From assembly GCA_000004985.1 (NCBI GenBank), contig GG738861.1: 64,000 nucleotides of DNA. One strand, written 5' to 3'. Within the stretch, counting starts at the first letter, position 1. Every line of letters begins with the position of its first letter. Shown in pieces: positions 556 through 31,428 of the stretch. A program made the position numbers and the translations under genes. The stretch comes from Naegleria gruberi. Lineage: Eukaryota. Below the pieces are notes generated by a model that was given only the letters and a program-made list of their open reading frames with translations, was not told the DNA's origin and searched no databases.

Positions 556-1860
556 GTAACTTTCCATGCTTCGCTGGCTGGTAGTAGTAATCTTTGAGAA
601 TGCATATTTGTTAACCCTAATATTACTTGATGCTGTTAAACTAAAATCATAATCGAATTGAATCTTGAAATTACCATTTGCCTTATCAGTCCAGAAACAT
701 TTTGGCTCAGTACCAAGCAATGCCAAGTCATCACCGTGAATCAACTTGGAGCATGGAACTGTATTTGCACTGTATGAAGGTGGAGCAAATAATTTGAGGG
801 TAACTCCATCAAATAGTTCATTAATTTGAGCATAAATTTCATTGACATAGCTTGAATTGAATGATCCAAAGTATGTTGCACAGTCACCTCCAAAGTAGCC
901 ATTCATACAATCATTACAAGAAGTTCCATTCCAGTGGCCATTATCTCTATCTTGATAGCAAGAGCATTTTCCAGTAGCGTCACAATTACCATTACCATTA
1001 CAAGTTGTTTGATCATTACAATACATATCACAATTTGACCCATAGTAATTAGTCTTACACTTTTCACAAATAAATCCATCAAAATTGCCTGTACAAACAC
1101 AAGTATTGTTGCTTCCACAAGATCCACCATTCAAACAAGTTGAGTCGGTACAATATCTCTCAGTACATGTTGTACCAGTGTAGGCAGGATGACATGTATT
1201 ACAATCAGATCCATAATAATGGCCATTTATGTGATCATTAACACATGAACAAGTATTGACATCTACACATTGACCATGTCCTGAACAAACATTGGAGCTA
1301 CTCTTTGAAATAGAATTACAATCAAATTGATCACACTTTTCACCATAGTATCCTGAATCACATGCGCATTTTCCAACACCACTTGTAGAATTGATAAAAC
1401 ATTTACCATGATTTGAACAAACTCTAAAATCAGTACTTGAGTAATAATCTTCAACGCCATTATAAATACCTATACAAAGTAAGTTTTCACAAGAATCACC
1501 TGTAATCTTGACTCCATAAATTGACAAGCAGGAACACTTATCAATATCTAAACAAGTACCTCTTCCTGAACAAACTTTTGCATCCATAGAAGAAATGCCA
1601 TAACAAGTTGTGTCTTGATAATCTTGACAATCTTTACCTCCATATCTCAACTGGCATATACACGTGTCAATATCAGTACAAACACCTCTTCCTGAACAAA
1701 CACTTGGATCGAGTGAAGTTTTACCAAAACAAGTTTTAACCTGACAATCTTTATCTCCATATCCATAAGAGCATTGACAATGACCATCTTCAAAACATTT
1801 GCCCTTTCCACTGCAAACAGTTGGATCATCTTGTCTCTTTCCATTACAACTTGTGATATT
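556..1860 (-). pseudogene. Telomere-truncated fragment of an EGF-like repeat surface-protein paralog (3' end lost to the telomere)
   Basis: My own minus-strand translation is stop-free from the gap to the telomere: ...NTCHPAYTGTTCTERYCTDS...VNTCSCVNDHINGHYYGSDC...SSNVCSGHGQCVD...CMNGYFGGDCATYFGSFNSSYVNEIYAQINELFDGVTLKLFAPPSYSANTVPCSKLIHGDDLALLGTEPKCFWTDKANGNFKI...[14 protein letters not shown]. It is colinear with residues ~512-900 of the 2770..8016 protein at roughly 60% identity. The frame reads straight into the TTTGGG repeats with no stop. Confidence 0.6.
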
Positions 1861-1911
1861 ANNNNNNNNNNNNNNNNNNNNNNNNNNNNNNNNNNNNNNN
1901 NNNNNNNNNNN
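1861..1911. other. Assembly gap (51 N)
   Basis: A run of N sits immediately after a ~180-bp tract that is ~99% identical to 6301-6480. Confidence 0.95.
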
Positions 1912-2769: not shown

Positions 2770-5700
2770 TTATGATAGGTTGGCATAATAAATCACATTC
2801 GGCACTAGATTAAGCCAAAAAAAAAAACATCGGGAATATTCCTCAACAATCATAGAGTAAATTATTGCAACATATTCCGTGGTTTCCATTGTTATAAATG
2901 ATGGAATGCTGATATTAACAAGAATAGTTTTGCTTACACCTTCCATTTCTGTTGGAATGGATGAAATGACAAAGTCTGAGAGATCGGTGAAATAAATCTT
3001 GTCCACTTGGACAGATAAAGAAGAAGTTTGTAAAACAACCGGATCAGCACTCACAGTTTGTTCCTTAACAACTGAATAAGCAAGTTGTTCAGTCACATTA
3101 ACCAATTGATCGTAAATAATGAGTTGTTCAAGAGTTGATGTAATATTTTCAACAGTCTTTTGCAAATTCTCAACAATTGACAAGACAGTTTGACTTGTTT
3201 CAGTTGAAATTTGAAGATTACTCTTAAGTGCTTGGTCAATTACTTCATTCAAAATAGAAATTGACTTATCAATAACTACTGGAACAATAATTTCATCGCA
3301 CTTAATCACAGAATAAACAGCATAAACAACCATTGATAAAGTTGACTCAATTGAGGTTTCCACTCTTGTAGTTTCCACAGCACTTGTAAGTGTACTAAGA
3401 AGTTGAGTTTGAATTTTAGTAATTGTTTCAGAATCTTGATGTTGAACTTGTGGTAAACTTTGCAACAATTGACTTGTTGAAACGATTGTATTAACAGTTT
3501 GTGAAATACTTTCAATTGGATTACCATCTTGAATGATGGCTAAAATGATTTCGGTTGTTTGATTGGACACCCGTTGCCAAATCTCTTCGACTGTGTTTAC
3601 CACAACTGTTGTCACTGTAATATTTGTGAACATGATTCTTGATTCTCCAGATTGGGTATCAGTCAATTCAACGAACCATTTAACAGGTGCAGATTGTGGA
3701 GTATTTGAACAAGAGGATACCACAGCAGGGATTTTAACAGTATCCTCCTTTGAGACTGGTACTTGAATTTTGATTCCAGTGTCACTATCTACATATCCTT
3801 GGGTGATTTGGATAGTATTTCGTTCATTTTGACAATTTACACATAAAACTTTGAATTCTGTTTCCATGGAAACGCCATTAGAAGGTGTAATACTACATGG
3901 ACATTTTTGTGGTTGAGTTCCTTTTGTAATTGTTGTTGAAATTTCGGTAGAAGCAATTTCAATACCATTAACAATATTAGATTCATTTGTTTGAACATAC
4001 GAAACTTTCAATGCAATACTATTTTCAGTTCCTTCATCAAATTCCCTAGCATCAATAATAATAGCACTTTGTGTATTCTTACTCACAACTTGAACATAAC
4101 TTGAAGTTGATAACATTGTGGTTGTCAAAAAAGAATCTCTTGATTCTATTCTTATAGTTTTACTCTCAGAAACAATGGAGTTGTCAATCTTCCATTCAGT
4201 TTTAATAGAAAGTGATGAATCTGATAAATCCTGTTTTGAGTGAGAGACTTCAATGGAAAACTTCTCATCACTTTTGACAACAGATTTAAAGTCTGGAGAA
4301 ATGTCAATAATATTGAGAATCGGAGGAAAATGAACAAAATTCAAAGTAATAGAACATGAAACCTTTCTTTCTCCTTTTGTAATGCTTAGAGTAAAAGTTG
4401 GTTTCTGTAAAGTTGAAACGGAAAAGTCAGATTTGTCAACATTGAAGAGAGTTAAATGATTCTTGGAATGGAAAGACATTTTGTCAACAACACCATCTCC
4501 ACAATAACCACCAGTTTCAGAATTGACACACGACCATTGCCATAATTCAGATTCGTCTGTGTTGTTTTCTGGATCTTGATAATTGACTTGAATTGTTGAT
4601 GAATAATTACTCACTCTCTTCAATGAAAGATAAAGTGAAAGGTCAGGTTGTTCTGTGTAAATTATCACATAATCGCTCGATGATAAACTTGAATTTTGTG
4701 CAGCTGTAATTGAAATTTGGAAAACGAATTTCCACTTTCCCTTAATGAAACTGTCAATAATCAAATTATTGTAAGCGTCCCTCTTGAATGAAAGGGATGG
4801 ACCCTCAATTTGTTCCCATTCAATATTAATTGTTTCATTCTTCAAATGGTCTGGAATTGTAGTTGTCTTTTTGATATGAACCGACTTTTCAGTTGACTTT
4901 TGTCTAATAATCTTACTACCTGAAATTACCACTGAAGGAACTTGATATTCAATAATTTGGAATGTGAAAATATTAATCGAACTGAATTCATTTGTTACTG
5001 TACTTCTCACAACTAGTGTCAACTTGTAAACTCCCAGTTTTAGTAATCCCTTATCAATCTTAATGGTTGCTTGCTTGTTGGATTTTAAGAAATTTTCAAT
5101 AGTTGAATTGATAGAGTTTCCCTCAATCTTCCAAGTATACTCCAGTTCTTTCCTATCTCCAGAGAAAGAGTATGATCCACTAAATATTATATCTTCTGTT
5201 TCACTGTAAATTCTTTTTGATGACTTCACATCAGCAACTGGACTTTTGACAGTATTTGGAGGCATTAAATAAATAATAGTGTCATCTATGATGGTTCTTG
5301 TAGAAAAAGCTCCAAGTTTGTTCAATCTTCTTGTAAGTGTAGTAAATAGATTTCTGTTCACTCTAAACTGGTTTCCTATGACTGACGAAGAGTTTAGAGT
5401 AAAATCATAATCGAACTGAATCTTGAAATCACCGTTTGCCTTATTAATCCAGAAACATTTAAGTTCTGTGCCGAATAATGGTTGATCATCTATGTAAATA
5501 AGTTTTGAACATGGAACAGAGTTTGGTAAATAGGAAGGTGGAGCAAATAGCTTAAATATCACACCATCAAAGTAATCCGTAACCTGAGAATAAATTTCAT
5601 TGACATAGGTTGAGTTGAATGATTCAAAATAAGTAAAACAATCGCTTCCAAAGTAACCAGTCTGACACGAGTTGCATGAGCTACCATTCCAATAACCATT

Positions 5701-8700
5701 CTTGGAATCTGAAAAACAAATACATTGTCCATTGGATCCACATTGACCATGTCCATTACAAGTTGATTGACTATTACAATAGACATTACATTGTGATCCA
5801 TAACTATTGGATTTACAAGTTTCACAAATCAATCCAGTAAAGTTTCCAATACAATCACAGCTATTATCAGTTCCACAAGAGCCACCATTCAAGCAAGTTG
5901 AACCAGTACATGTTTTAACATTACAATTTGGACCAGCATATGCAGGATGACAAATGTTACAATCAGATCCAGAATAGAAACCATTAGCACTATCTCTAAA
6001 ACATGAGCAAGTGTTAATTCCAACACAGTTACCATGTCCTGAGCAAACATTTGAGTTATTCTTGGCAATAGAGTTGCAATTAAACATTTCACACTTATCT
6101 CCGTAATATCCCGCAACACAGGAACATCCTCTTGTTGAGCAGTTACCATGCTTTGAGCAAACTCTATAATCATTGCTTGAATAAAAATCTTCAACATTAT
6201 TGTATACTCCTTTGCAAAGTAAGTTTTCACATTCATCACCAGTAATCTTTATACTGACACCGTTTGATGAAAAACATTGACAGGTGTCAATATCAGTACA
6301 AACACCTCTTCCTGAACAAACACTTGGATCGAGTGAAGTTTTACCAAAACAAGTTTTAACCTGACAATCTTTATCTCCATATCCATAAGAGCATTGACAA
6401 TGACCATCTTCAAAACATTTGCCCTTTCCACTGCAAACAGTTGGATCATCTTGTCTCTTTCCATTACAACTTGTTATATTACATTTAGATCCAAAAAATC
6501 CAATTAAGCATTTACATAAATCATTTCCTATACATTCACCTTTTCCAGAACAAACAACTGTATCTTCAAGACTTGAAATGCCAAAGCATTCAAAAGTTTG
6601 GACTGTAACAGCCGCATTCAATGAACAGTCTGCTCCAAAGTATCCAGCTGTACAATTACACTTATTTAATGAAAGACAATCACCATGTCCACTACAGACC
6701 TGTGATGAATTATATTCAACTCCTGAACATGTGTGGAATTCACATTCCATTCCAAAATATCCGACATTACATGCACATTGATCCACTTGAGAGCAATTAC
6801 CACGGTTTAAACAAGCACCATTTAGACCTTTTCCAAAACAAATTGGTGATGAACAATCTACACCTGCCCAATTTTGATTGCACGTACAATTATTTGGAGA
6901 GTTACATTGACCATGTGAGGAACAAACCAGTGATGAGTTTGAAAGAATATTGAAACATTTTGGGAGAGCACACCAATCTCCTCCGTACATAGTGTTGCAT
7001 TGACAAATACCACCCACACAAGTGCCATTAGATGAACATACTGATGGGTCATCCTTTGAAATGCCATTACATTTGAGTAGTTGACATTGGTTTCCTTCGA
7101 AATTAGGAGAACAGGAACATGTATCAACACCAGAACATGTTCCATGTCCAGAACAAACTGATGTTTCGTTTGACAATTTTCCAAAGCAATATGGGTATTG
7201 ACATTGTGGACCTCCATAGTCTGAGTTACATTGACATGAATCCAATCCAACACATGAACCATGGGAATTGCAAATAGATGAGTCGTTTTGTAAAGTCCCA
7301 TAACATGTTGTAATTGAACAATTAGATCCATAATAATTTGAAGAACATGAACACGAATTATAATCCATACAAATACCATGCCCTGAACAAACACTGGAAT
7401 TGGTTTTTGCTACAAAGTAACAATCAAAATCTTCACAATTAGATCCATAATAATTTGAAAAACATGAACATGAATTAAATGTTGAACATGTACCATATCC
7501 TGAACAAACCTGACTTGAATTAGAAAAGACTCCATTACATGTTGTAATTGAACAATTAGATCCATAGTAATTTGAAGAACATGAACACGAATTATAATCC
7601 ATGCAAATACCATGTCCTGAACAAACACTGGAATTGGTTTTTGCTACAAAGTAACAATCAAAATATTCACAATTAGATCCATAATAATTTGAAAAACATG
7701 AACATGAATTAAATGTTGAACATGTACCATATCCTGAACAAACCTGACTTGAATTAGAAAAGATTCCATTACATGTTGTGACTGAGCAATTGGCACCATA
7801 ATAATTTGATGAGCAGCTACAGGAATTATATGCTGTACAAGTGCCTTGATTAGAACAACCAGTGGTAATAGAGTTTGAATATCCATTACATGTCCAAGAA
7901 GAACAATTTGAATTGAAATAACCAGTTGAACAGAGATTACAATAACCTCCAGCATAATTCACATCACATGCAAGGTAAATTTTTCTGAGTTCATCGATTT
8001 CTGCAATTACCATCAAATTGCTATCGCTGGCAAAAGCTAAGCCTACAAGTGTATTGAACTTGGTATTGGCCAGAGTTTCTCCATCATTAAATGTGCCAGC
8101 ACTATTGCCAGCATATGACGATATTGTGCCCGTGTTAGCATTGGCAGCAGAGGGTGTGAAAAGTTTAAGCGCACCACTGTCAGTGTAGTATACATTACCG
8201 TTGTCGTTTACAAAAAAGTCTTTGATTGATACAGAAGAGGTCTTAATTAAGTTAGTTTAAACATTTGACCCAAAACTTACAGTACAAATTGTTGTAACTG
8301 TTGAAGCTGTGAAAACTTTTAGATAAAAAGTTGAACCGATTTGTTGAAAGTAATATATCTTTCCGTCAGAAGGTCTTATATTAAAAGAAACTAAAAGAAT
8401 TAAAAGAAAATGTCCGATAACTTACATAGTGATGCAATATTTGCTGATGAAGATGCACCATCAGAAGTGGAAGCACCCCCTCCCAAAACAACTTCAATCT
8501 TGCCAGTTAAAGAGTTGATTTTGTAAATGTAACTGTCTAATGCAAAATAGACCTCACCATTGTAATATTTTACATATTTGACAGACTAGAATAAATTGGA
8601 TATTCATTTAATATTCATTCATTTCAATATTATAAAAATACTTACAATAATAGTACAAGCAGTTGGAGTGTTTCCATTAGCACATACTGGTCCAGCTGAT

Positions 8701-10271
8701 ACACCAGCTACAACCGTTACTAAACCAGTGCTTTTAGAAAGTAATTTGATATATATTCCAGTAGAATAAGAATCGACTGTTATATGAAAAATGTAACCTC
8801 TAAAATTCCATAATATAAAACTTACTCAAATAGATATCTCCAGTTGGAGTGCATGTCATAGATATAATGTTAGAATATCTAGCAGTCACATATGAACCTC
8901 CAATATTGTCAGATCCACTTGGGGCTTTGTTATTATAAGGAAGATAAAAAAATCCTGCGTAATGCTTAATTGTTGAACTTGTTAAATTGTAAAACTTAAT
9001 ACTGGTTGAGTCAGCCATATAAAATCCATCGCTGTATAAAGCAATTGCACTTGGAGCCAATTTAAGAGTTTTGGCATTTCCTTCATTCAACACGTTTCTG
9101 TAGTGCAAAAAAGAAGACAAAGTAGTTCCAACAAGTTTTCTAATGTTGTAAGAATTTTCAGCAAAGTAAAGATCACCATTTGTTGGATCAATAGTTAAGT
9201 ATTCAATGAAACCAATTATTGAAGATGGTGTAATAGTTCCATCTGCTGACTCACCTCTATATCCATTACCCAAAACTTGTTGCACAATTCCATCGGTTGT
9301 TAGTTTTCTAATGCTATAATCATATGCATTCCAATAAAGCTCATTATTGTAGCAGTCCATCTTGGTAGGATAGTTAGTTGTATCCATTAGATACGAGGTT
9401 CCAGAAATACCTGTACTTTTTGAAGCACCATTTCCAACAACTGTTGTGACATTAATAGTTCCTCCACTTTCAGTCAATTTTTGAATATAGTTTTTACTGG
9501 CAGATACATAAACATAAAGACCTCCATTACAATATTTGATTTGCATTGCAAAACCTATTAAACCAGTTTTGTAAACACTAGCTGCATTGGTTGTTCCATC
9601 AATTTTTCTAATCAGCCGATTGTCTTTTCCAATAGTCAAGGAACCTCAAACAATTAATACTTACTATAATCTGCATAATAAATGTTATCTGAAGGATCTA
9701 CAGTTATTGAGGAAGAAGAACCGGTTTGAACCAAGAGAGGATTTGAAACAGTATTGTCAGAGTTTCCAATTCCAGCACCAAAAATTACCGAAACTTGACC
9801 AGTGGATGAATCTAATTTTCTAATTCTAACTGTTCCATCAATCCAAATTAAGTCTGTTTTCCATCTTATTAAGCTTTTTGGTGTACTCATTTGAGTCGTT
9901 GTGGGATCAGTTGTGTATGTTGATCCATATGTACCACTTCCAACCTTTACATAAAATTAACCAATAAAAACTTCTAGAAAACCTACAACAGTTGAAATAA
10001 TACCTGATGAAAGAGTAATCTTTCTAATTGTTGCTGACTCGGTCGTGTACAATACTCCGGCCGTAGCATCTAAATAAATATATCCAGGAGAAACTTGATT
10101 ACTTGAGATTGGTACATTGTTCAAAGCACTAGACATTCCTCCAATTACCATGGATTTGTAGGTTCCTGTGCACGCCACATTATTATTGCTAATATTCAAA
10201 ATAATTATCAAAAAACAAAGTAATAAGGCTATGACCTCATTCTTTGATGTTGTTGAATAGAAGCACCACAT
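2770..10271 (-). CDS. Multi-exon gene: signal peptide + NHL-repeat beta-propeller + ~25 EGF-like (tenascin/laminin-type) repeats + Ser/Thr-rich region; giant secreted/surface glycoprotein
   Basis: The 1748-aa ORF 2770..8016 actually continues open upstream to ~8256 and encodes NHL motifs (KDFFVNDNGNVYYTDSGALKLF...). Further NHL exons lie at 8827..9639, 9654..9890 and 9957..10271, separated by short GTAAGT...TAG introns (for example 8778..8826 and 8586..8645 on the minus strand). The first exon starts at ATG 10271 with a signal peptide, MWCFYSTTSKNEVIALLLCFLIIILNIS. EGF units follow the CxxHGxC...C.C...YyGxxC pattern and carry many N-x-S/T sites. Confidence 0.75.
7382..7849. repeat. Near-perfect 2 x 234-bp tandem duplication inside the EGF region of the 2770..10271 gene
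   Basis: The string cctgaacaaacactggaattggtttttgc recurs at 7382 and 7616. The protein repeats the 78-aa block NG(I/V)FSNSSQVCSGYGTCSTFNSCSCFSNYYGSNCE(Y/D)FDCYFVAKTNSSVCSGHGICMDYNSCSCSSNYYGSNCS(V/I)TTC twice. Confidence 0.85.
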
Positions 10272-11599
10272 GTTATTTTTTTGTTAGAGAGGAAACTCGT
10301 ACGGTATAAATACTCCTATTTCTTCACAATCCGTTAACCAGGCTTCACCAACATCTTCATTTTGCGCCTCGTCAAAAAGATGCAACATCCAAACTCGGCA
10401 GTATTACAAGCTGAGCAGAGTACTCTGCCCGGAACACTGTTACAAATAAAGAAGTAACCGTAAATTTAGAGGAGATACTAATTGACGGGTCAAACGGGAC
10501 AAGGCAGCATTAAGATACGGAGCAAGAAAAGTGTTTCAACGAGAATTTTCCTCGCTGTAAGTCAGTCACTTTTATTAAGGATAATACGGCAACAAAGAGC
10601 CAAACCAAATACAACATTCTAAACAATCTTTTATATTTGATATCACACTTATCACTTTGTAAAATTATGCTTCCATCTCAAAGGATAGCAGAGTGTTATA
10701 CTTGGTAGTGTCCCTACTCATGTTAATCAATGTTGTGAATGTTATTTACACTACTCTATTAAGGATTCTTGTAATATTCTCGAACAGGTTAATTTGCTGT
10801 TCAAATCATTGATAAGAGAAAGTTCTCCTATTCCGCAAGTTTATTTGGCCCCAAAGTAGATTTTCATCAAAATCTTCAAAATCGGCACATCTACTTGGTC
10901 ATCACAAAAACCATCTCCAATTAATTGGAGATTGTTCACTGATCAATAGTGTGTGGGGTTGAATTTTGGAAACTTTCTTCGGGTAATTCAGCAAGGCATC
11001 TTCATCATTACTTTCTTCAATAACTATATCATTGTGGAGGTTTCACACTGGCCAGGGCACTAGGAAGATTGTCATAATTATGTGGGGGTGGGTGGGTCGT
11101 GAAAAAAGGATGTCCATAATTACGTGGTCCAGAGTGGGTCAGAAAGTAGAGCAGAGCAAAAACAAAAATTGGCAAAAGTAGAGCCGAAGGTTTATTAGCC
11201 AAGAGTGAGACAGCGTTCAAAGTATCAATTATCACTTGTTCTGCTAGCAACAAGTACTTCTGGGTTCTTGATTGTTTGTGTACCAACAACTTTGGGCAGG
11301 CATTCATCTGGATTGTTATGGTTGAATGTGCTATGGCTGATGTGGAAGGAGGCAAAGGGAGAACTCTCCTCCTGGTACTGATGTTGGTAGTTAGCAGGGT
11401 GGTGATGAAATCATGGGTAATTGTTGTTTGTTGTTTTTTTTGTTGAATATTTAACGGTCAGAACATTCAACTTTCAGCGGTAACATGTGTGAAAAAGCTC
11501 ACATGCAGTGGCCAGGATTTGTTGGGACGATCTTACAGTGAGGTTGGGTGGGTCAAAAAGTGAGGGTCGTAATTATGACAATCTTCCCTAGACCAAGAT

Positions 11600-12180
11600 A
11601 AGAATCAAAAAATATTCACCAAATGGTCCTCTATGGGCATGATGATTTTCGGAGTGGTTTTACATCATGAAACCACCAAACTTTCACATCATCATCTCAA
11701 CATGATCTATATAGTAGTAATAATAGTAATTTTTATTGGTGGATTATCATCATGAAATTGGAATTTATTTTTCATGATGGAAAATCACAATTTGGTGTTC
11801 CATCATCGGATCATTCACCAACCATCATTATTGTTTTCCATCAATATAATAATAGTATTTGTGGAAATTAATTTTTAGTAATGTAATTTTGGTGAAATGT
11901 AAAAATTTTCACTAAATTCATCATCACTGCTGGATCTACTGGACAAGTTGGAAAACTGTCAATGTAGTATTGTTCGGAATGGTCAATAGTAGGTAGGAGA
12001 ACTTTCTCTTATCAATTTTGGTCAAGTTATGATAGGGATAGGTAGATGTGAATTTTGAAAAAGTACATGGATCATAACTCAACATGTACTTCACCAACTT
12101 GAATCATGTCTTTTAGTACTACTATTTAAATAGATAATAAACATCATATTTATTATCAGATTTTCGTCATGTTGTCAATT
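11600..12180 (+). repeat. Dispersed ~0.5-kb non-coding repeat, copy 1 (second copy at 32135..32620)
   Basis: Long stretches are near-identical between the two copies (for example ttttccatcaatataataatagtatttgtggaaattaatttttagtaatgtaattttgg and cactaaatccatcatcactgctg.atctactg.acaagttggaaaactgt.aatgtagtattgttcggaat). Copy 1 carries an extra ~110 bp near 12015-12125. A 23-bp inverted match lies at 10808-10830 versus 11990-12012 (ataggagaactttctcttatcaa). Confidence 0.8.
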
Positions 12181-19100: not shown

Positions 19101-20900
19101 TGGACAATGAATGGTCAATCTATTCCTTCAGAATTGACAAGAAATATGAGAATGCAACTTTCTGAGTCTGACGAATTAATTTTGGACACATCTTCTTTGA
19201 CAGAAGGTGCAACTTATCAAATTTCTTTCAAAGTTACTAATGTTGATTCTTTGTTATCTGCTTCATTGAATCATTCATTTGTAATCAACAAATCACCAAA
19301 ACCATGTGACTGTCAAGTGTCACCTTTGAGTGGTATTGCAATGACAACAATATTTACTTTCAATTGTCCAAAATGTCAAAACGATCAGAATAGTAATACT
19401 TTTGAATATGGTTTTATTGATGACTTTTCAAAATCCAACTTTCCACTTTCTAAAACAGAAGAATTATATCAAAAACTTCCAATGCCAAATTCTGGAAACA
19501 AATTAGATCTTTATGTCAAGGTAATTGATTCATTGACAGGATCTAGCTCCATAACAACCAAACAAGTTACCATTTCTCTTCCGGTTGTCAAAAGTTTAGC
19601 AGGAATCAAAAAGTTAACAGCCTCATGGAACCAAATAGCAACATTGGCTCCTGTTGGTGATTATCAACGAAGTGTTTTCAATACTGCAACCATTTCTAGA
19701 ACAATGAATTTATTATTTAAGAGTATAAGTTCAAAGAGAGATTTTTGTAATGGAAATGGACAATTTAAAGATGGGAAATGTGTTTGCAATTCTGGATTTA
19801 CAACAAGTAATTGTAAATGGTCCACTGAAGATTTTGAATTTATTCAATCTTTAATTAGAGATTTATTGAATGATTTTATGGGTTCAAGTCAAATCATGAC
19901 AACCGCTTCAGAATCAACAAATAGAAATTACATTACAAATTTATTATTTGGATTGAATTCAATTTCACAAAATTCTGAATATCTTTCTAACCAAATGGTC
20001 AACTCTAGTTTAATTTTATTGAGAGATGCTTTGGTATCAGTTCAATCAAGTACCACCTTTGTTCTGTCTAGAGGAGATTTGGTCAACTTGCAAAATATTT
20101 TGAACTTACAAGAAAATTTAATGGATGGTGAAAAATTATTGGAAACTGTTGAATTATTAGGGCAAGTTTTATTGAGAAATGTTTTAATTGGTCAAATACC
20201 ATTTAAATTTGAAACTAACAGTTATTTGACAGTTTTAAACAAACATTTCAAGAATCAAATGAATGGAATGAAATTCGAAAGTGAGATGGTGAATATCACG
20301 TTACCATGGAACATTTCATCTCTCTTGAAAACTAATTCAATCAAGTCACCAATCAAGTACAGATGGAATATTCAAAAAAATACAGACACCATTGCAATTG
20401 CAAATCAACCTGGAAAGATAATATCAATCAATTCAGTTGTGAATAGTTTACAACTTGATCCTTCACCTCAATCTTATTCGAAATACTTATTCGACATTGA
20501 GATGAAACAATACGACAGTCAGGCAGCTTATGTTTGTGCTAACATTGGATCAGCATCATTGGAAACTGATTGTTCCATTTCTATCAAGAATAACCAAATA
20601 GCAACTTGTGAATGCTCTTCATTAGGATATAATCTTGTAATTCTTGAATACAAATCCATTGAAAATCATGTATCAACCTCCTCTTCATCAAATTCAAATA
20701 TAATTGTCAAAAAACCTCCAACGAGCAATCCATTAATGTGGTTATTATTGTTACTAGTCCTCATTCCACTTACTGCCCTACTAATTGCAGTAATTGTATG
20801 GTTTGTAGTAAAGAAACTGGGTAAAGATAAGAATAATACAAGAAATCCATACATGCAAACACAAGAAAGCAGTTCTACAATTGAATTGAAGCATGTTTAA
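13198..20900 (+). CDS. Giant type I membrane glycoprotein: signal peptide, ~430-aa N-terminal domain, more than 20 EGF-like repeats, Ser/Thr-rich stalk, TM helix and short cytoplasmic tail. One gene broken into three ORFs by two assembly gaps
   Basis: ATG at 13198 begins MAIIQRRTATIASLLIIVLWYCFC. ORFs 13198..17271, 16952..18691 and 18507..20900 share architecture and differ in frame only across the N runs at 16986-17035 and 18627-18676. The C-terminus has a TM segment, PLMWLLLLLVLIPLTALLIAVIVWFVV, followed by KKLGKDK... and a TAA stop at 20900. Confidence 0.7.
16986..17035. other. Assembly gap (50 N) inside an EGF tandem-repeat array
   Basis: An N run flanked by near-identical EGF cassettes. 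Confidence 0.95.
18627..18676. other. Assembly gap (50 N)
   Basis: An N run at the end of a ~700-bp block identical to 15170-15880. Confidence 0.95.
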
Positions 20901-21244: not shown

Positions 21245-21585
21245 ATGTTTCCACAACAAGCTCCACGGATTGTGGTAGAGATAAAACTTGGTAACACAGT
21301 TGCTCAATTGTTTCCAGATGGTAGCTTGAGTAATGGTTCAACCAGTATTACTGATTTCAGCGCAGTTGCACTAAACAAGCAAAACAAGCAAGTATGGGGG
21401 TTTGAAAATGACAAAGTTAAAATATTGTGCAATCAAAACCACGTTTGTAGTTATGGTCAAGTCAACCACTTGATAACAGGCAAGGGATTAAATAGGCTTC
21501 GTTCTCTTTACAATCTCGTAATAACAAAATATCTCCAACAACAGCCAAACATCACCGTTCCCAGAACCAATGCTGGTGACACCAN
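21245..21585 (+). CDS. 5' partial CDS of a hypothetical protein, interrupted by a 1020-N gap
   Basis: An ATG-started open frame of 113 codons runs into the gap. No recognisable domain. Confidence 0.3.
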
Positions 21586-23571: not shown

Positions 23572-26500
23572 TTAAAGCATTAACAAGCACATCATGATTG
23601 AAACCAGTAAGGAAACACTGAACGAAATCATTGCAACGTTGTTGACACGAGCTGAAACCTTTGGAATAAAAGGAGCAGGAGAAGATTTTGGAGAGACAAC
23701 AGGTGTTGGAATAGCCTTTGGTTGAGCAGTTAACAAATATTTGCCAGTTGAAGAGACAGAAACAGTTACAGAGTTACTGGTCTTGGAAATGACTGAACAA
23801 CTGGTTGAGAGTTGATAATTATTGGTTGCTGAATTGTAAACTTGACAATAGACATCATATGCAGAAACCGATCTTGCCATTGTTATATCCTTTGAGGTAG
23901 AGAAGGTCAATTCGGCAATAGAACTTGAACTAGAAACGGTAACTGCAGATTTTTCAGCAAGAGAAATATCAAGAGCATCTGAAACAGAGTTGGTGACTCC
24001 GCCACTTGATGATTTTACCTTAAGAATGAGAGTCTTGTAATTAGAAACAAGATCAGAAAATTTAGCTGCCATTTTGAACTTATTTCCATTAATAATATCT
24101 TGTAAATTATTCAAAGTTGCAATATTGACCTTTCTTGAATAAGTAGTTGTTTGATTAGCAACAATATAGTTGGCTGGAAGGTCAGCAACTGTATCCTTAA
24201 CGAGAGCGCTTGATAAACTGTCATACGTAGCTTGAATATTAGTAATATCAGAATTGGAGAATGATCTCTTTGAAACACCCTTTGCTACAATAAATCTATA
24301 GAATTTATCAGCAGCTTCCTTCGCCTTTGTCAACAGTTCAGTAGCCAATTTAACTTCATCACTCGAAGCAGCATTAGCAGCAGTTTGAGCAAGATTGGTG
24401 ATCATCTTGGAAATAATGTCATCGACAATATATTCCAAACTTGAAGTACCAGAAGAAATCATTGACAATTTAGAGGAGGCAGAGTTAGTATTTTCAGAAG
24501 CAACAGATTGAGCCTTTGCTTGATTGTCCAAATAGGAAAGAATCATATTGGAAGTCAATTTTGCAATTTCAGCTTTTTGCTCAGCAGTTGCACCAGCAAT
24601 AGAGCTAACAACCTTAATGACAGCAGATACGGAAGCAAGGGTTGGTGTTTCCTTCGCAGTTGATTCAATAGAATTCACTGCTTGAGTGGTAGTTGGTTGA
24701 GTAACAGCTACAGAAATTTCAGATTCTGTAAATGCCAACTTGGAATCATAAACTGCAACTTTAAGACGGAGTTGAGAACTGCTTGAAGAAGGTAATTTGA
24801 TTCTTGTAGATCTAGTTTCAGTTCTCTCCGTCAATGCAGTCCAAGAGGATGAAATGTCATCATAATAGAAGAATTGATAGGTAAGTGGCAACTGAGAGTC
24901 TGTCCAACCATTTCCACATTTCAATTCGAATAAGGTACTGAGAGCAACACCAGATTGTGGACTAGCTTCGAAAATACCTCTTGTTGGAGGAGAGTTTACA
25001 TTAACACTTGTTGTAGCAACACCATTCTTTGAACCATCAGTAATATTCAAACTAATAGAGTATGAAGCGCCAGCACTCAACAATGATTTTGGAATCTTGA
25101 TAAAGCTGGAAGTTTGGGTGAGTGATGATAAATCAAACTTATCAGAGAACCAGAAGAAGGTTGGAGATGATAAAACTTCAAGAGAGGAATAGGTCAAATA
25201 CAAATCAGATGATGGGCTAACAAGTGAAAGATCGCTATTAGAAGTAATTGAAGCTCTAATCAAAGTATTCTTTGGAACGGACTTAGCTTTAACAATTAAA
25301 TTAGTTGATGCAGATCTTGATCCCTTAACAACAGTAGCAGTATACTTGTATTCACCAGCAGAGAGGAATGTGGAGAAGGTTCTTTGATTTAAATTTGGAG
25401 AAGAACATGACTTAATGTTGACAATATCAAAACATGTGATAGTGACAGTTTCTGAATCAGACGTACTACTTGGATCAACAACTGCAACAGAGAAATCCAA
25501 TGAATCTTGAGTTGATTGAGTAATGTCAGAAATGTTGAATTGAATAGTCAAATCTTGAGCTACAGCAGTTACCTTGAAAGGAAGAAATGCATCGTTAGCA
25601 TTGTCAGAAACAGCCCTAAGGATAAAGTAATAATCGCCTTCCTTATTAATATCAGTGAAGGATTTACCAATAGCGAATAAATTATTACTAGATTTTGGAG
25701 TTACAACTGATTTAGAGGCTGAAGAAGTATCAACAGAATAGGTATAATCAGTTTGATAATTTCCAGAATAACACTTTGGGAATTTGATGACTGGTGTCAA
25801 TACAATAGTAGATCCAATCATGTAAGTCACAGAAATACCTTCACTGAGTGATAGAGTTGGAACTGGATTGCTAACAACATTCACGGTAACACTTGATGTG
25901 GCAACTTTAGAGAATGCAGTTGTGACAGTAACTTGAATAATGAATGATCCACCAGAAATTGCACTCAATGAAGAGGAGCTGAAATCGACAATAGCGCTTG
26001 AAGTTTTAACACCACTCAAGTAAGTATTCAAAGCATTCATTTCACCAACAGTTGGACCGTTAGTGACATACCAAGAGAATAACAATGCACGACGATCTGA
26101 TGAAACTGATCCAGAAGCATCCAAATATAGAGTATCACACTTGGAAACAGAGCTCTTATCAGAAACTAGATTAACACTTGGAGGAAGTGCAACAAATGTA
26201 CCAGAAGAAACTGTAACAGACAATGTTTCAGCGCTTCCTGGGAATTTGAATAATCTCAAAGAATTACCTGGTACAATATTTGCACTGGTTCCTAATATAA
26301 TTTCCAAAGAGGAAGTTGCAGAATTCAAAATACATTTAGCATCAGAACCTATCAATGATAAATCAGAGCTAGAAATGACATCTGAACAATCTGATTGTTT
26401 CAATAAACTTGATTTGACTTCACCAATAATTGACCCACCAGTTGAAGTGAAAACAAAACTATTAGAATTAATTTGGAAATCACAATTGCTTCCAAACCAT

Positions 26501-28425
26501 CCATTCAAACACTTGGCACAATTACTGGAAGCATCAAAGTTTCCATAACAAGTACATGAGCCATCATTATTACAGTAACCTTTAGAGGAACAATTACTAA
26601 CACTATTACAAGTAATTGAGCAACTGGAACCAACAAATCCACTAGCACATTGATCACAATATGTACCAACAAAGTTACCTTCACAAACACATTTCAAATT
26701 AACACAATTACCTCTGGAATTACAAGTTTGAACTCTATCACAAACTGGAGTGTTACAATTAGCTCCTGAATAATCAAGTGAGCAGCTTGAACAAGATTTA
26801 CCATCATTGTAATTAATTGGACATGAACACTTATTAGGAGCTGAACAAATACCACGAGATGAACAAACACTAGAGCTTGACTTGTCAATTCCATAACAGC
26901 TAAACGTTTGACAAGCTGTACCATTATAACCTTCAGAACAATGACAGATATTTGGAGCAATACATGAACCCTTTCCAGAACAAACTCTATTATCGGTAGC
27001 ACTAATTTCAAAACAAACGGGAATATCACAATTATCACCAACAAAACCATCAACACATTTAGAACAAAACTTGGATGAATCAAAGTTACCATTACAAGAA
27101 CAAACATCCTTTGAAACACATGAACCTCTATACGAACATCCTCCTTGAGATTCACTCAATCCATTACAAGTAGTGTATTGACATCTATCACCAGTGTAAC
27201 CACTATTACATTCACAAGTATTTGGGGCAGTACAATTACCTTGTTTGTTACAACCAGATGTACCTGTTTGATTGTTACAAAGTGGAATAGTACAATCACT
27301 ACCAGTATATCCACTACCACAAACCATAACACTACACTGAGAACCAGTAAAACCTGGATAACAATCACATTGATCTTTTCCTATACATTTACCCTTACTT
27401 GAACAAACAGATGAAGAATTACTCAAAGTATTAAAACATCTTGTTTCAGAACAAGATGGACCTTCCCAACCACTCTTACATGAACATTGATTTAGTGATG
27501 AACAGTTACCATTAGATGAACAAACACTTGATTGATTGGCCAAAATACCAAAACATGAAGTAATTTCACACAACTTGCCATAGAATCCACTATTACATTG
27601 GCAAGTATTTGGACCAACACATTGACCATTTCTTGAACAAACAGTTTGATTGGAGTTGGTTAAACCAGAACAAGAATATGTTTGACATTCAGAACCAATG
27701 TAACCACTCTTACATAAACAGCTATCAACAGAAACACAAGTTCCTGATCCAGAACAAACAGATGAATCAGTAAAATTCTTTCCAAAACATTGATGAATCT
27801 GGCATTCTAATCCACTGTATCCATTATTACATTGACACATATCTTGAGAAATACAAGTACCTTGATTACAAGCTTCAGCTCTTGGCTTAGTGAAACATGT
27901 GATATTCTTTGAGACACAAGTATTTGGAGCAATACATGTATCGTATTGTCCACAGGATTGAGTTTCGTTAGCCAAATAATTATTGCAAATTGGCATGTTA
28001 CAAACACCAGCAGGTCCATAACCTGATTTACATTCGCACTTGTCAAAATCACTGCAGATACCTTTCGAAAAACAAACTTGAGGTGATTGAGAATCGATGC
28101 CATTACAAGTTGTAAAAGAACAATTGTCTCCGTGGTAATTTGTTGAGCAGATACAATCATCGAGACTAGAACATGAACCATGGGATGAACAAACCTTGGA
28201 ATCGTTAGCTGGAGTACCATAACAGGAAGGAATTTCACAGAATTTTCCAATAAATCCATTAACACATATACAACCGCCATCCAGACATGTTCCATTACCA
28301 TTACAGATATTTTCCAAATGAGTAGATCCACATTTAACTGGTTCTGGTTGTGGGGTTTCCGTTGTTGTTTCATTACAGAATGTTCCATTGATATTTGAGT
28401 TACAAATACAGACACCGTTCAACAA
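23572..28425 (-). CDS. C-terminal ~1600 aa of a giant surface glycoprotein: Cys-repeat and EGF-like modules, long Ser/Thr-rich region, C-terminal GPI-anchor-like hydrophobic signal
   Basis: The ORF begins inside a 43-aa repeat unit (CICNSNINGTFCNETTTETPQPEPVKCGST...), so it is not a real N-terminus. It ends ...SARVNNVAMISFSVSLLVSIMMCLLML, which is GPI-signal-like. It is contiguous with 28510..31428 except for two 1-nt homopolymer deletions. Confidence 0.7.
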   Translation of the reverse strand: MLNGVCICNSNINGTFCNETTTETPQPEPVKCGSTHLENICNGNGTCLDGGCICVNGFIGKFCEIPSCYGTPANDSKVCSSHGSCSSLDDCICSTNYHGDNCSFTTCNGIDSQSPQVCFSKGICSDFDKCECKSGYGPAGVCNMPICNNYLANETQSCGQYDTCIAPNTCVSKNITCFTKPRAEACNQGTCISQDMCQCNNGYSGLECQIHQCFGKNFTDSSVCSGSGTCVSVDSCLCKSGYIGSECQTYSCSGLTNSNQTVCSRNGQCVGPNTCQCNSGFYGKLCEITSCFGILANQSSVCSSNGNCSSLNQCSCKSGWEGPSCSETRCFNTLSNSSSVCSSKGKCIGKDQCDCYPGFTGSQCSVMVCGSGYTGSDCTIPLCNNQTGTSGCNKQGNCTAPNTCECNSGYTGDRCQYTTCNGLSESQGGCSYRGSCVSKDVCSCNGNFDSSKFCSKCVDGFVGDNCDIPVCFEISATDNRVCSGKGSCIAPNICHCSEGYNGTACQTFSCYGIDKSSSSVCSSRGICSAPNKCSCPINYNDGKSCSSCSLDYSGANCNTPVCDRVQTCNSRGNCVNLKCVCEGNFVGTYCDQCASGFVGSSCSITCNSVSNCSSKGYCNNDGSCTCYGNFDASSNCAKCLNGWFGSNCDFQINSNSFVFTSTGGSIIGEVKSSLLKQSDCSDVISSSDLSLIGSDAKCILNSATSSLEIILGTSANIVPGNSLRLFKFPGSAETLSVTVSSGTFVALPPSVNLVSDKSSVSKCDTLYLDASGSVSSDRRALLFSWYVTNGPTVGEMNALNTYLSGVKTSSAIVDFSSSSLSAISGGSFIIQVTVTTAFSKVATSSVTVNVVSNPVPTLSLSEGISVTYMIGSTIVLTPVIKFPKCYSGNYQTDYTYSVDTSSASKSVVTPKSSNNLFAIGKSFTDINKEGDYYFILRAVSDNANDAFLPFKVTAVAQDLTIQFNISDITQSTQDSLDFSVAVVDPSSTSDSETVTITCFDIVNIKSCSSPNLNQRTFSTFLSAGEYKYTATVVKGSRSASTNLIVKAKSVPKNTLIRASITSNSDLSLVSPSSDLYLTYSSLEVLSSPTFFWFSDKFDLSSLTQTSSFIKIPKSLLSAGASYSISLNITDGSKNGVATTSVNVNSPPTRGIFEASPQSGVALSTLFELKCGNGWTDSQLPLTYQFFYYDDISSSWTALTERTETRSTRIKLPSSSSSQLRLKVAVYDSKLAFTESEISVAVTQPTTTQAVNSIESTAKETPTLASVSAVIKVVSSIAGATAEQKAEIAKLTSNMILSYLDNQAKAQSVASENTNSASSKLSMISSGTSSLEYIVDDIISKMITNLAQTAANAASSDEVKLATELLTKAKEAADKFYRFIVAKGVSKRSFSNSDITNIQATYDSLSSALVKDTVADLPANYIVANQTTTYSRKVNIATLNNLQDIINGNKFKMAAKFSDLVSNYKTLILKVKSSSGGVTNSVSDALDISLAEKSAVTVSSSSSIAELTFSTSKDITMARSVSAYDVYCQVYNSATNNYQLSTSCSVISKTSNSVTVSVSSTGKYLLTAQPKAIPTPVVSPKSSPAPFIPKVSARVNNVAMISFSVSLLVSIMMCLLML

Positions 28426-28429
28426 GTTC

Positions 28430-31250
28430 CATTATAATAGCAATTATTTTCTTCAACGGTTGATCCACAGTTTAATTGGTTCAGTGGAACAGAGTATTCT
28501 GGTGTGCTTTCATTGCAAATGTTCCGTTAACGTTGTATTGCAAATACAAATACCATTTACACATGTTCCGTTACCATAACAGGCATTTTCTTCCAATGTT
28601 TCACCACATTTAATTGGTTCAGGATGTGGGATAACTGGTTCTGTATTTGTTTCATTGCAATATGTACCATTAATGTTTGAATTACAAATACAGACACCAT
28701 TAATGCAAGTACCATTTCCATAACAAATATTTTCATATTCAGTGATACCACATTTAACAACTGGTTCTGGTTGAGGTGTTGGAGTTTCAGAAGTCTCATT
28801 ACAGAAGGTTCCATTAACGTTTGTATTACAAATACAAATACCATTTACGCATGTTCCATTTCCATAACAATTATTTTCCTCAATGGTTGTTCCACATTTA
28901 ATTGGTTCAGGTTGTGGAATTATTGGTTCAACAATGGTTTCATTACAGAAAGTACCGTTTGAGCCACCTAAACATGAACAAATACCATTCAAACAAGTTC
29001 CATTTCCATAACAATTATTTTCTTCAACGGTTGATCCACATTTAATTGGTTCAGGTTGGGGAATTGGAGTTTCTGGAGTTGTTTCATTACAGAATGTTCC
29101 GTTTACATTAGAGTTGCAAATACAAATACCATTTACACATGTTCCGTTACCATAACAGGCATTTTCTTCCAATGTTTCACCACATTTAATTGGTTCAGGA
29201 TGTGGAGTAACAGGTGCTGATGTTGTTTCATTACAATATGTACCATTAATGTTTGAATTACAAATACAGACACCATTCAAACAAGTTCCATTTCCATAAC
29301 AATTATTCTCATCTTCAGTGAAACCACATTTAACAACAGGTTCTGGTTGAGGCTCATGACTTGTTTCATTACAGAAGGTTCCATTAACGTTGGTAATACA
29401 AACACAAATACCATTCATGCAAGTTCCATTTCCATAACAATTATTTTCTTCAATGGTTGATCCACATTTAACTGGTTCAGTTGGAATTTGAGGTTCTGAA
29501 GCAGTTGTTTCATTACAGTATGTTCCGTTCATACCCTCAACACAGATGCACAATCCATCAAGACATGTGCCGTTACCATAACAATTGCTTTCTTCCTGAG
29601 TTGTACCACAAATAATTGGTTCAGGTTGTGGAGAATCAGAATTTGTTTCATTGCAATATGTACCATTTACGTTTGAATTACAAGCACAGACACCATTGAT
29701 GCAAGTTCCATTTCCGTAACAGTTGTTTTCTTCCATGGTTGATCCACATTTAACTGGTTCAGGATGAGGAATTGGAGTTTCAGGAGTTGTTTCATTACAG
29801 AATGTTCCGTTTACCTTTGAATCACAAACACAAATACCATTTAAACAGGTTCCATTACCGTAACAGTTATTTTCTTCCAATGTTTCACCACATTTGACAG
29901 GTTCTGGTTCTGGAGTAACTGGTTCTGTAGTTGTTTCATTGCAGAATGTGCCATTAACATTCTCAAAACATACACACAAGCCATCAACACAAGTACCATT
30001 TCCAAAACAGTTATTTTCTTCTTCGGTCGAACCACATTTAACTACTGGTTCTGGTTGAGTTGGATCTTGAGTTGTTTCGTTACAGAATGTACCATTCACG
30101 CCAATAAAACAAATACAAACACCCTCAATGCATGTACCGTTACCATAACAAGTATTTTCTTCTATAGTTTCACCACATTTGACAGGCTCAGGAACAACTG
30201 GATCTGGAGATGTTTCGTTACAGAATGTACCATTAATATTCTCGTTGCAAACACACAAACCATCAACACATGTTCCATTTCCGTAGCAGCTATTTTCTTC
30301 TGTTGTTTCGCCACATTTAATTGGTTGAGTTGGAACTTGAGGTTCAGTAGGATTAGTTTCGTTACAGAATGTACCATTAACATCTTGATTACAAACACAG
30401 AATCCATTTACACAACTTCCATTGTTGTAGCAATTATTCTCTTCCAAAGTTTCACCACATTGTAAAGGTTGTGGAATTTCAGGTTCTATATTTGATTCAT
30501 TACAGAATGTACCATTTGCGCCTTCTTTGCAAATACAGGAGCCACCAATACAAGTGCCATTACCATAGCAGTTATTTTCATCTTCTGTAAAACCACATTT
30601 AACTGGCTCTGGTTGAGTTGGGATTTCAGGAGCTGTTTCGTTACAGAAAGTACCATTAGCGCCTTCAATACAAACACACAGTCCATCAAGACATGTTCCA
30701 TTACCATAACAATTACTTTCTTCCTGAGTTGTACCACAAATAATTGGTTCAGGTTGGCTGGGAACTGGACTGGTTTCGTTACAGAATGTACCATTACTAC
30801 CTTCATTGCAAGTACAAAAACCATTCTCACACGTACCATTGCCATAACAATTATTCTCTTCTTCTGTAGTACCACATTTAACCAATTCTGGTTGTGGTTC
30901 CATGCTGAAGGTTTCATTACAAAATGTACCATTAACATTCTCGTTACAAATACACAAACCATCGACACATGTACCATTACCATAACAAATATTTTCATCT
31001 TCTGTGAAACCACAGTTAACTGGTTGAGTAGGGACTTGTGGTTCTTGAGTTGTTTCATTACAGAATGTACCATTCACACCTTCAATACATATGCAGAAAC
31101 CATCGACACATGTACCATTACCATAACAATTTTGTTCTTCCAATGTTTCACCACAAGTGGTAATGGTATCATTACAGAATAAACCAATGAAACCTTCTGA
31201 ACATTGACAAACACCACGAGTACAATTACCATTAGAATAGCAAGATTGTT
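28430..31250. repeat. Tandem array of about 24 x 129-bp coding repeats (43-aa Cys module)
   Basis: The periodicity is visible in both the nucleotide and the protein sequence. Units are roughly 70-95% identical. Confidence 0.85.
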
Positions 31251-31428
31251 CATCTAATGTTTCACCACAGAAAACATCCTGACATTCCATTGTACCCAAG
31301 AGGTCACATGTCTGGGACAATAAACATTCAGTGTCTGAACTGCATGTTGCTGATACGAGACCAACAGCAGCAATTACAGAAAGTACAATTAAAAGTATTG
31401 TTGTTTTGAACAGCAAGTTACTTGCCAT
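28510..31428 (-). CDS. N-terminal part of the same giant gene: signal peptide plus about 22 tandem 43-aa six-Cys repeats, VKCG.T.EEN.CYGNGTC..G.C.C....NGT(F/Y)CNET, with Pro/Thr/Glu linkers
   Basis: ATG at 31428 begins MASNLLFKTTILLIVLSVIAAVGLVSA, a signal peptide. The repeats are highly regular, about 129 nt each, with three N-glycosylation sequons per unit. Confidence 0.75.
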   Translation of the reverse strand: MASNLLFKTTILLIVLSVIAAVGLVSATCSSDTECLLSQTCDLLGTMECQDVFCGETLDEQSCYSNGNCTRGVCQCSEGFIGLFCNDTITTCGETLEEQNCYGNGTCVDGFCICIEGVNGTFCNETTQEPQVPTQPVNCGFTEDENICYGNGTCVDGLCICNENVNGTFCNETFSMEPQPELVKCGTTEEENNCYGNGTCENGFCTCNEGSNGTFCNETSPVPSQPEPIICGTTQEESNCYGNGTCLDGLCVCIEGANGTFCNETAPEIPTQPEPVKCGFTEDENNCYGNGTCIGGSCICKEGANGTFCNESNIEPEIPQPLQCGETLEENNCYNNGSCVNGFCVCNQDVNGTFCNETNPTEPQVPTQPIKCGETTEENSCYGNGTCVDGLCVCNENINGTFCNETSPDPVVPEPVKCGETIEENTCYGNGTCIEGVCICFIGVNGTFCNETTQDPTQPEPVVKCGSTEEENNCFGNGTCVDGLCVCFENVNGTFCNETTTEPVTPEPEPVKCGETLEENNCYGNGTCLNGICVCDSKVNGTFCNETTPETPIPHPEPVKCGSTMEENNCYGNGTCINGVCACNSNVNGTYCNETNSDSPQPEPIICGTTQEESNCYGNGTCLDGLCICVEGMNGTYCNETTASEPQIPTEPVKCGSTIEENNCYGNGTCMNGICVCITNVNGTFCNETSHEPQPEPVVKCGFTEDENNCYGNGTCLNGVCICNSNINGTYCNETTSAPVTPHPEPIKCGETLEENACYGNGTCVNGICICNSNVNGTFCNETTPETPIPQPEPIKCGSTVEENNCYGNGTCLNGICSCLGGSNGTFCNETIVEPIIPQPEPIKCGTTIEENNCYGNGTCVNGICICNTNVNGTFCNETSETPTPQPEPVVKCGITEYENICYGNGTCINGVCICNSNINGTYCNETNTEPVIPHPEPIKCGETLEENACYGNGTCVNGICICNTTLTEHLQ

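Follow-up and report, generated by a model that had tools for sequence, protein, structure and literature searches.

We propose that the first 31 kb of a 64,000-nucleotide stretch of Naegleria gruberi DNA (NCBI GenBank assembly GCA_000004985.1, contig GG738861.1; the whole stretch is called the window here) probably hold four members of a large, Naegleria-wide family of glycosylated surface proteins, in which EGF units, a REJ domain and a GAIN-like domain stand behind variable N-terminal heads, with a putative role in adhesion or sensing. The genes adjoin a chromosome end. The repeat (CCCAAA)n (92 copies, 98% match, no strand assigned) occupies positions 1..554, family coding sequence begins directly past it at 556, and large, Cys-rich open frames (7–12% Cys) recur in the first 31 kb. 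The C-rich strand at 1–554 has the orientation expected for a left chromosome end, and the corresponding G strand reads TTTGGG, which was proposed as the candidate telomere repeat of N. gruberi by Fulnečková et al. (2013; PMC3622300). An earlier, sequence-only reading had described a telomere-adjacent cluster of related giant EGF-rich genes, and that description holds. It had counted five genes on alternating strands; the relatedness is real, but there are four loci, since the supposed pair at 23572–31428 is one gene, and their strand order is −, −, +, −. The same reading had also supposed a social amoeba as the source, where the top matches, which are N. gruberi proteins, and the TTTGGG telomere identify the amoeboflagellate N. 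gruberi NEG-M.

Four loci with a shared domain order

The cluster proteins are giant secreted EGF-rich glycoproteins related to the outer part of polycystin-1. Against a gathering cut-off of 25 bits, the Pfam REJ model (PF02010) scores 70.9 bits with gene 2, 81.8 with gene 3 and 134.1 with gene 4, and gene 1 is cut before the position of REJ. Strong Pfam matches to EGF_TEN, EGF_2 and EGF_Teneurin, together with a PKD-like unit, all lie ahead of REJ. In an alignment of 42 family sequences the conserved order is EGF units of the teneurin/tenascin type, a laminin-EGF-like CxxC..G[YF].G..C block, a two-Cys module, the PKD-like unit and REJ, after which come the GAIN-like domain, a Ser/Thr/Pro stalk and an anchor that is either a transmembrane helix or a hydrophobic end of the glycosylphosphatidylinositol (GPI) type. 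The module order given by the sequence-only reading (signal peptide, EGF array, CxxC EGF block, two-Cys module, Ser/Thr/Pro stalk) agrees with this, and the REJ and GAIN-like domains are what it overlooked. The two-Cys module is small and of β-type, and the YFxSFNS/KLFAPPSY region is the version of it found in genes 1 and 2. These two genes, which are 65% identical in protein sequence and are the sole close pair of the cluster, both carry the KLFAPPSY/CFW..KANG region that had been thought common to the cluster, while genes 3 and 4 keep just its two Cys and the general pattern.

The heads of the proteins vary, with an NHL-type propeller in gene 2, a domain of ~470 amino acids (aa) in gene 3 and ~20 six-Cys repeats in gene 4. 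Past the signal peptide there is one hydrophobic segment in gene 3, one in gene 4 and none in gene 2, and the differing membrane attachment noted earlier is therefore upheld, with a transmembrane helix in gene 3, a GPI-like tail in gene 4 and no anchor in gene 2. Transmembrane-type and GPI-like endings both recur family-wide in N. gruberi, N. fowleri and N. lovaniensis; the two anchoring modes are a trait of the family and not a local innovation.

Gene 4 (23572..31428, minus strand) is a single gene of ~2600 aa. Its signal peptide is followed by a head of ~20 N-glycosylated 6-Cys repeats (28364–31155), each of 46–48 aa rather than the 43 aa first assigned to them, and then by the EGF array, the CxxC block, the two-Cys module (26290–26478), REJ (24628–25368) and the GAIN-like domain (23719–24690), which includes a degenerate GPS-like motif (S-S-T-G-K-Y, 23725–23853) and is succeeded by a Pro/Ser stalk. 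In the hydropathy profile the C-terminus is a 21-residue hydrophobic stretch (23575–23637) with nothing after it. The end reads ...KVSARVNN-VAMISFSVSLLVSIMMCLLML, with small residues preceding the stretch and no cytoplasmic residues, and it fits the pattern of a GPI-like signal, so that lipid attachment is predicted. The last 1474 codons (23572–27996) correspond at 99% identity to XP_002678591.1 of N. gruberi NEG-M, which sits on a 507,294-bp scaffold and whose annotated model is without the upstream ~1100 codons of gene 4. As assembled, gene 4 consists of two open reading frames (ORFs) parted by ~5 single-base indels that all fall in ~130 bp (28430–28560), inside one repeat unit. An intron between the two ORFs was considered and rejected, since what lies between them can be aligned with an ordinary repeat unit, the single-base indels excepted. 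Because the lesions are so tightly clustered, the burst suggests poor sequence and not pseudogene decay.

Gene 2 (2770..10271, minus strand) forms a single frame, giving a 2411-aa model, once six GT..AG introns are removed (9945–9986, 9624–9664, 8777–8825, 8586–8645, 8391–8425 and 8242–8280, minus strand). In order of size these measure 35, 39, 41, 42, 49 and 60 nt, and all of them are in the NHL-like head, the EGF-to-REJ portion being a single exon. The encoded order is signal peptide, NHL-type propeller region, ~16 EGF units, CxxC block, two-Cys module (5401–5631) and REJ (3511–4731). The head contains repeated "..IRKI/L.." motifs and its Pfam TEN_NHL match is borderline, at 27.2 bits vs a cut-off of 27.1. 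A 234-bp tandem duplication with 93.6% identity lies in the EGF array at 7298–7830, in contiguous sequence. The protein stops ~150 aa before the end of its paralogs, and no GPS-like motif, transmembrane helix or GPI signal was found in any downstream frame.

Gene 3 is assembled in two parts, both on the plus strand. The 5' part (13198..16985) encodes a signal peptide, the N-terminal domain of ~470 aa (13198–14688; no Pfam match at E ≤ 1), an EGF array from ~14689 that includes a tandem EGF duplication (14976–15404, 87%, in contiguous sequence), the CxxC block, the two-Cys module (16222–16413) and the PKD-like start of REJ (16576–16779), and it then enters a 50-N gap. The 3' part (18678..20900) continues with REJ (18804–19670), one EGF unit, a helical and then a β region, a GPS-like motif (20529–20651), a Ser-rich stalk and the anchor, which according to the hydropathy profile is a transmembrane helix (20733–20810) with a basic cytoplasmic tail of ~29 aa. 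A word-indexed protein search with the C-terminal part of gene 3 returned no match, its lists being swamped by low-complexity words. Between the two parts, and bounded by 50-N gaps, is a contig of 1.6 kb (17036..18626, plus strand) that is made up solely of EGF units (a 240-bp unit in 4.7 copies), is frameshifted near 17268 and over 17747–18626 is 96% identical to 14989–15868. It splits the REJ domain at a point where the collinear paralog P0030 predicts just ~46 missing residues, and it aligns only to the EGF region of P0030. Since it interrupts the REJ domain of gene 3, this contig is most likely misplaced in the scaffold, or a fragment of another copy or of an unplaced paralog.

Gene 1 is an open fragment of 435 codons (556..1860, minus strand) with EGF units, the CxxC block and the two-Cys module (643–873). 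Just past that module and ahead of REJ its 3' end is replaced by the telomere, as had been recognized earlier, most plausibly through a terminal deletion that was healed by a new telomere, and its 5' end is lost into the first 50-N gap (1862–1911). A tract of 202 bp in gene 1 (1660–1861) is 99% identical to 6280–6481 in gene 2 and stops exactly at this gap; the rest of gene 1 is 71% identical to gene 2 in DNA, and over ~1 kb gene 1 carries one extra EGF unit. The 99% tract could be due to gene conversion or to a contig-end artefact. Four near-identical tracts had been listed as signs of internal duplication and conversion between paralogs, and of these the tandem copies in genes 2 and 3 are genuine, while the pair with 96–99% identity adjoin 50-N gaps. 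Past the first gap there is no 5' part of gene 1, and an unrelated plus-strand ORF is found instead. This open frame of 199 codons (1913–2512, plus strand) emerges from the gap and is flanked by the gene 1 fragment and by gene 2 with its truncated 3' end. It lacks any Pfam match, and its Cys-rich C-terminus, CFCGN..CCNCLDGICEGC..CIYCEPEC, resembles a zinc-binding motif.

The GAIN-like domain and related protein families

To identify the region after REJ, the C-terminal 379 residues of gene 4 were modelled with AlphaFold2 from a 6-sequence alignment. With a mean predicted local distance difference test (pLDDT) score of 64.6, the model has seven helices at 8–174 (pLDDT 74–93) and then a β region, and in a Foldseek comparison with the PDB its top five matches are all GAIN domains (BAI3, CELSR1, BAI3 chain B, latrophilin-1 and CD97), with E values of 9e-5 to 3e-3. 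PDB sequence searches with the gene 4 tail and with the post-REJ profile gave no meaningful match. By hhalign, the Naegleria post-REJ profile aligns at 89.5% probability (E 2e-6) with one built from relatives in which the canonical motif C-x-C-x-H-L-T-x-F is present, and S-T-G-x-Y then stands opposite H-L-T-x-F; the first two GPS cysteines are invariant in the Naegleria group and the canonical-motif relatives alike. The GPS-like motif of gene 3 keeps all four Cys and reads C-E-C-S-S-L-G-Y where the canonical form is C-x-C-x-H-L-T-x-F, and a more distant relative from Stygiella combines REJ with a Pfam GPS match. On this evidence we assign to the family a GAIN-like domain that lacks the catalytic His as well as the Thr/Ser nucleophile. 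Since the H-L-T triad is replaced by S-T-G or S-L-G, canonical GAIN self-cleavage is unlikely in these proteins.

The nearest known kind is the PKD1/REJ family. Common to both are a REJ domain above the Pfam threshold that is followed by a GAIN-type domain beside the membrane, and large ectodomains that are glycosylated and contain EGF and PKD-like units. SpREJ1 of the sea urchin, a carbohydrate-binding receptor, has an EGF unit, REJ, a GPS region and one or two transmembrane segments (PMC1934368). The Naegleria proteins differ from the PKD1/REJ family in that they are without PLAT/LH2, the region of 11 transmembrane segments and the C-type lectin; the Pfam scan of the cluster proteins found no PLAT and no PKD_channel. 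They differ further in the GPS motif, where H-L-T has become S-T-G in the gene 4 group and S-L-G in gene 3 and the Pfam GPS model goes undetected, as well as in the presence of some GPI-like ends, EGF arrays of 10–16 or more units and a heterolobosean host. A literature search for REJ/GPS proteins of Naegleria found no description of them.

Two other kinds of protein share parts of this architecture. The GAIN domains of adhesion G-protein-coupled receptors (BAI3, latrophilin, CELSR1, CD97) likewise have helical and β subdomains directly before the anchor, and the first two GPS Cys are common to both, a likeness in fold that derives from a medium- to low-confidence model. The Naegleria proteins are without the seven-transmembrane region and the cleavage triad, and because there is no seven-transmembrane region (gene 3 has a single transmembrane helix and gene 4 a hydrophobic tail only) they are not adhesion receptors of this class. 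Teneurins and tenascins resemble them in that EGF_TEN and EGF_Teneurin are the top-scoring EGF models, to which the borderline TEN_NHL match of gene 2 can be added. However, teneurins are type II proteins in which EGF units are followed by NHL and then by the YD shell, whereas the Naegleria proteins begin with a signal peptide and are type I. The NHL region of gene 2 stands ahead of its EGF units, and there is no YD shell or toxin-like domain; the Pfam scan gave no YD or Tox-GHH match. The type I orientation and the absence of a YD shell are why the cluster proteins are not teneurins.

Age and spread of the family

The family is old and widely distributed within Naegleria. Searched exhaustively with HMMER, the part of the gene 4 tail outside the EGF units gave 498 matches at E ≤ 1e-3, of which 20 were at E ≤ 1e-30, and the best were N. 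gruberi NEG-M proteins. In word-indexed protein searches, three proteins were returned with the gene 4 tail, in lists swamped by low-complexity words, and with the 42-sequence alignment the matches were chiefly unrelated giant REJ proteins. Outside the EGF arrays, genes 2, 3 and 4 are mutually 22–30% identical. In a rough neighbour-joining tree, which has long branches, gene 4 groups with three N. gruberi paralogs of other scaffolds, and genes 2 and 3 fall into a separate deep subfamily in which the closest relative of gene 3 (XP_002681431) is again on a different scaffold. Homologs are present in N. fowleri and N. lovaniensis.

Genome-wide scatter of the paralogs with no enrichment at chromosome ends had been named beforehand as an observation that would speak against a subtelomeric family. 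Counted by scaffold, at least 12 paralogs are present on 11 others, which range from 13 kb to 1.56 Mb. The N. gruberi genome is reported by Fritz-Laylin et al. (2010) to be ~41 Mb in size, and on that figure the ~15 detected members lead to an expectation of ~0.01 further members per 31 kb. Hence the clustering of family genes in the terminal 31 kb is not due to chance.

Variation between isolates, which had been put forward as a second check, is represented by one metagenome contig. ERZ929261 k127_411397 (2779 bp) matches window positions 25308–23503 at 99.39% over 1806 bp. One of the differences is non-coding, and the other 10 fall in 1.73 kb of coding sequence, where 6 are nonsynonymous and 4 synonymous. 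This level of divergence in gene 4, seen in a single contig, does not suggest hypervariability. The first 973 bp of the contig are unrelated to the window and contain a different ORF, and they point to a structural variant (a truncated second copy, for example) or else to an assembly chimera. A scan of metagenome data for (CCCAAA)6 found 120 loci, 22 of them with terminal repeats, among which there was no family member, no resemblance to the window and none that was demonstrably from Naegleria. A search of the literature on Naegleria subtelomeres found no description of them.

Family genes are restricted to the terminal part of the window, in that tblastn searches of the window with family proteins found no further member at 31–64 kb. 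From ~33 kb on the genes are ordinary ones, namely two identical actins, a β-CASP nuclease, EMP70, a CitMHS transporter, an actin-related protein and a subtilase. The two actin genes (32747–34306 and 40164–41710) encode 377-aa proteins that are 100% identical, and they form a 1.56-kb inverted repeat with 96.4% DNA identity whose copies are separated by ~6 kb. In SRR3922091 a transcript-like contig has this very actin protein but DNA of just 94–96% identity. A non-coding repeat of ~420 bp (11595..12012, plus strand) has a second copy at 32129–32548 (85% identity). The two copies have the same orientation and are found at 0.7–1.7 kb upstream of genes 2 and 4 respectively, both of them on the minus strand, and they may represent a regulatory element that these genes share or simply a dispersed repeat. 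Between genes 3 and 4, a 113-codon ORF in 21245–22609 enters the largest gap of the window (1021 N), the flanks of which are AT-rich (25–26% GC). No Rfam match was found in the whole window, and the tRNA scan gave one tRNA-Gly only, at 56.6 kb, far from the cluster.

Readings of the chromosome end and their implications

The architecture invites a simple picture of how these proteins might work. The EGF/REJ stalk would be stiff and would hold a variable binding head off the membrane, much as in the ectodomains of polycystin-1, sea-urchin REJ1 and adhesion G-protein-coupled receptors, and the proteins may act in adhesion to, or in the sensing of, substrate, prey or other cells. The suggestion that this is a surface family of adhesion type can be retained in this form, as an adhesion or receptor role is a sensible default for proteins of such an architecture. 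The GAIN-like domain would be a structural module beside the membrane, probably without self-cleavage. The cluster is an old and mixed array whose members come from two deep subfamilies, and its one recent pair consists of gene 2 and the fragmentary gene 1. Several observations weigh against this interpretation. The function assigned to the cluster proteins is deduced from their architecture. The β subdomain of the gene 4 model is of low confidence and its Foldseek TM-scores are just ~0.27, the Pfam GPS (PF01825) and GAIN models gave no match to genes 3 and 4 even at E ≤ 10, and the AlphaFold2 model of the post-EGF part of gene 3 was unusable (pLDDT 40). Furthermore, the frame of gene 4 carries frameshifts as assembled, and with gene 2 being anchorless some of the copies may be pseudogenes. 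The contig that bears the telomere (1–1861) is linked to the remaining scaffold solely via a gap. Finally, XP_002678591.1 is named 'basal body protein' in the database, and its paralog XP_002680062.1 'basal body protein NBP family'.

If these names were correct the genes would encode components of the basal body or flagellar apparatus and not surface proteins, which we consider highly improbable. The names are matched against a secreted architecture that comprises a signal peptide at the N-terminus, EGF units with over 100 Cys in total, dozens of N-x-S/T sites, REJ and a C-terminal transmembrane or GPI-like signal; a review of Naegleria basal bodies names no such protein (PMC4819266), and a literature search for the origin of the name found no basis for it. 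The state of the assembly is of greater concern. All four N runs that mark scaffold joins (1862–1911, 16986–17035 and 18627–18676, of 50 N each, and 21585–22605, of 1021 N) are within the first 23 kb of the window. It can be argued from this that both the telomere adjacency and the marks of a dynamic locus are largely assembly artefacts, that the short repeat-rich contigs at 1–1861 and 17036–18626 are misplaced, and that the true locus is an internal cluster of three genes. The 96–99% tracts that stop exactly at gaps, the splitting of REJ by the 1.6-kb contig where ~46 residues are predicted to be missing, the frameshift in that contig together with the burst of single-base indels at 28430–28560, and the unrelated plus-strand ORF that takes the place of the gene 1 5' part beyond the first gap are all in line with this argument. 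Nevertheless, the junction of the telomere with gene 1 is inside one contig, gene 1 is too distinct (71% vs gene 2 over 1 kb, with an extra EGF unit) to be a misassembled gene 2, and scaffold joins are normally based on read pairs. Moreover, genes 2, 3 and 4 are clustered wherever the first contig belongs, and we regard an artefactual origin of the chromosome-end position as unlikely.

The sequence-only reading had favored a subtelomeric contingency or variant-adhesin family, in which the position at the chromosome end drives ectopic recombination, conversion, truncation and switching, as in the var genes of Plasmodium, the VSG genes of Trypanosoma, the EPA genes of Candida glabrata and the FLO genes of yeast. 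The resemblance lies in large surface glycoproteins by the telomere, a truncated terminal copy and internal tandem repeats. The cluster directly adjoins the telomere and one copy is cut by it, gene 1 is a mosaic with respect to gene 2 (99% over 202 bp, then 71%), EGF units are tandemly duplicated in contiguous sequence, the metagenome contig joins the 3' 1.8 kb of gene 4 (99.4%) to unrelated upstream DNA, and in the tree the N. gruberi paralogs nearest to gene 4 cluster apart from the genes of other species. However, because the full-length paralogs are just 22–30% identical outside the EGF units, a value too low for ongoing homologous exchange, no such exchange is expected among them. Genes 3 and 4 have their closest relatives on different scaffolds, the cluster is composed of two deep subfamilies, the 96–99% tracts adjoin assembly joins, and the coding sequence of gene 4 differs little between isolates (6 nonsynonymous and 4 synonymous differences in 1.73 kb). 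With identities of 22–43% the paralogs are ancient in comparison with the known subtelomeric families, the organism is free-living, and it is in position only, and for this one end, that the cluster corresponds to them. Rapid contingency-type evolution is thus not borne out, and such a family is quite unlikely here. The related suggestion of allorecognition like that of the Dictyostelium tgr genes falls with the social amoeba, since the source is not a dictyostelid, although the actin sequence and the base composition had at first pointed to one. What the cluster may have in common with tgrB1/tgrC1 is only that both encode polymorphism-prone single-pass surface proteins in an amoeboid organism, whereas Naegleria belongs to the Heterolobosea, a different supergroup, and has neither an IPT/TIG domain in these proteins (PF01833 was absent from the Pfam scan) nor a head-to-head pair of polymorphic genes.

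A further proposal is that the chromosome end could be a hotspot of breakage and exchange at which an EGF–REJ–GAIN-like surface family diversifies. It is prompted by the fragment that a telomere healed, by the mosaic likeness of gene 1 to gene 2 (99%/71%) and by the differing 5' context of gene 4 in another isolate. As a separate idea, the conserved S-T-G-x-Y would mark a GAIN variant that does not cleave, or is processed differently, on proteins with a single pass or a GPI anchor. Taken together, the two ideas are, in our estimate, distinctly doubtful. If the hotspot were real, it would make this the first surface family of a subtelomeric, contingency-like type in a heterolobosean that is free-living. 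Adjacency to the telomere has been observed once, and it would be of weight only if the family proves to be enriched at chromosome ends.

Our preferred interpretation, that of a glycosylated EGF–REJ–GAIN-like surface family with four members at this end, has consequences that extend beyond the cluster. It provides a domain reading for giant Naegleria proteins that are currently named "predicted protein" or, implausibly, "basal body protein". The pairing of REJ with GAIN that is known from polycystin-1 and the sea-urchin REJ proteins would also be present, and expanded, in a deep-branching protist, which bears on the origin of this module. For Naegleria, and through its homologs for the pathogen N. 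fowleri as well, the family is a source of candidate surface receptors or adhesins.

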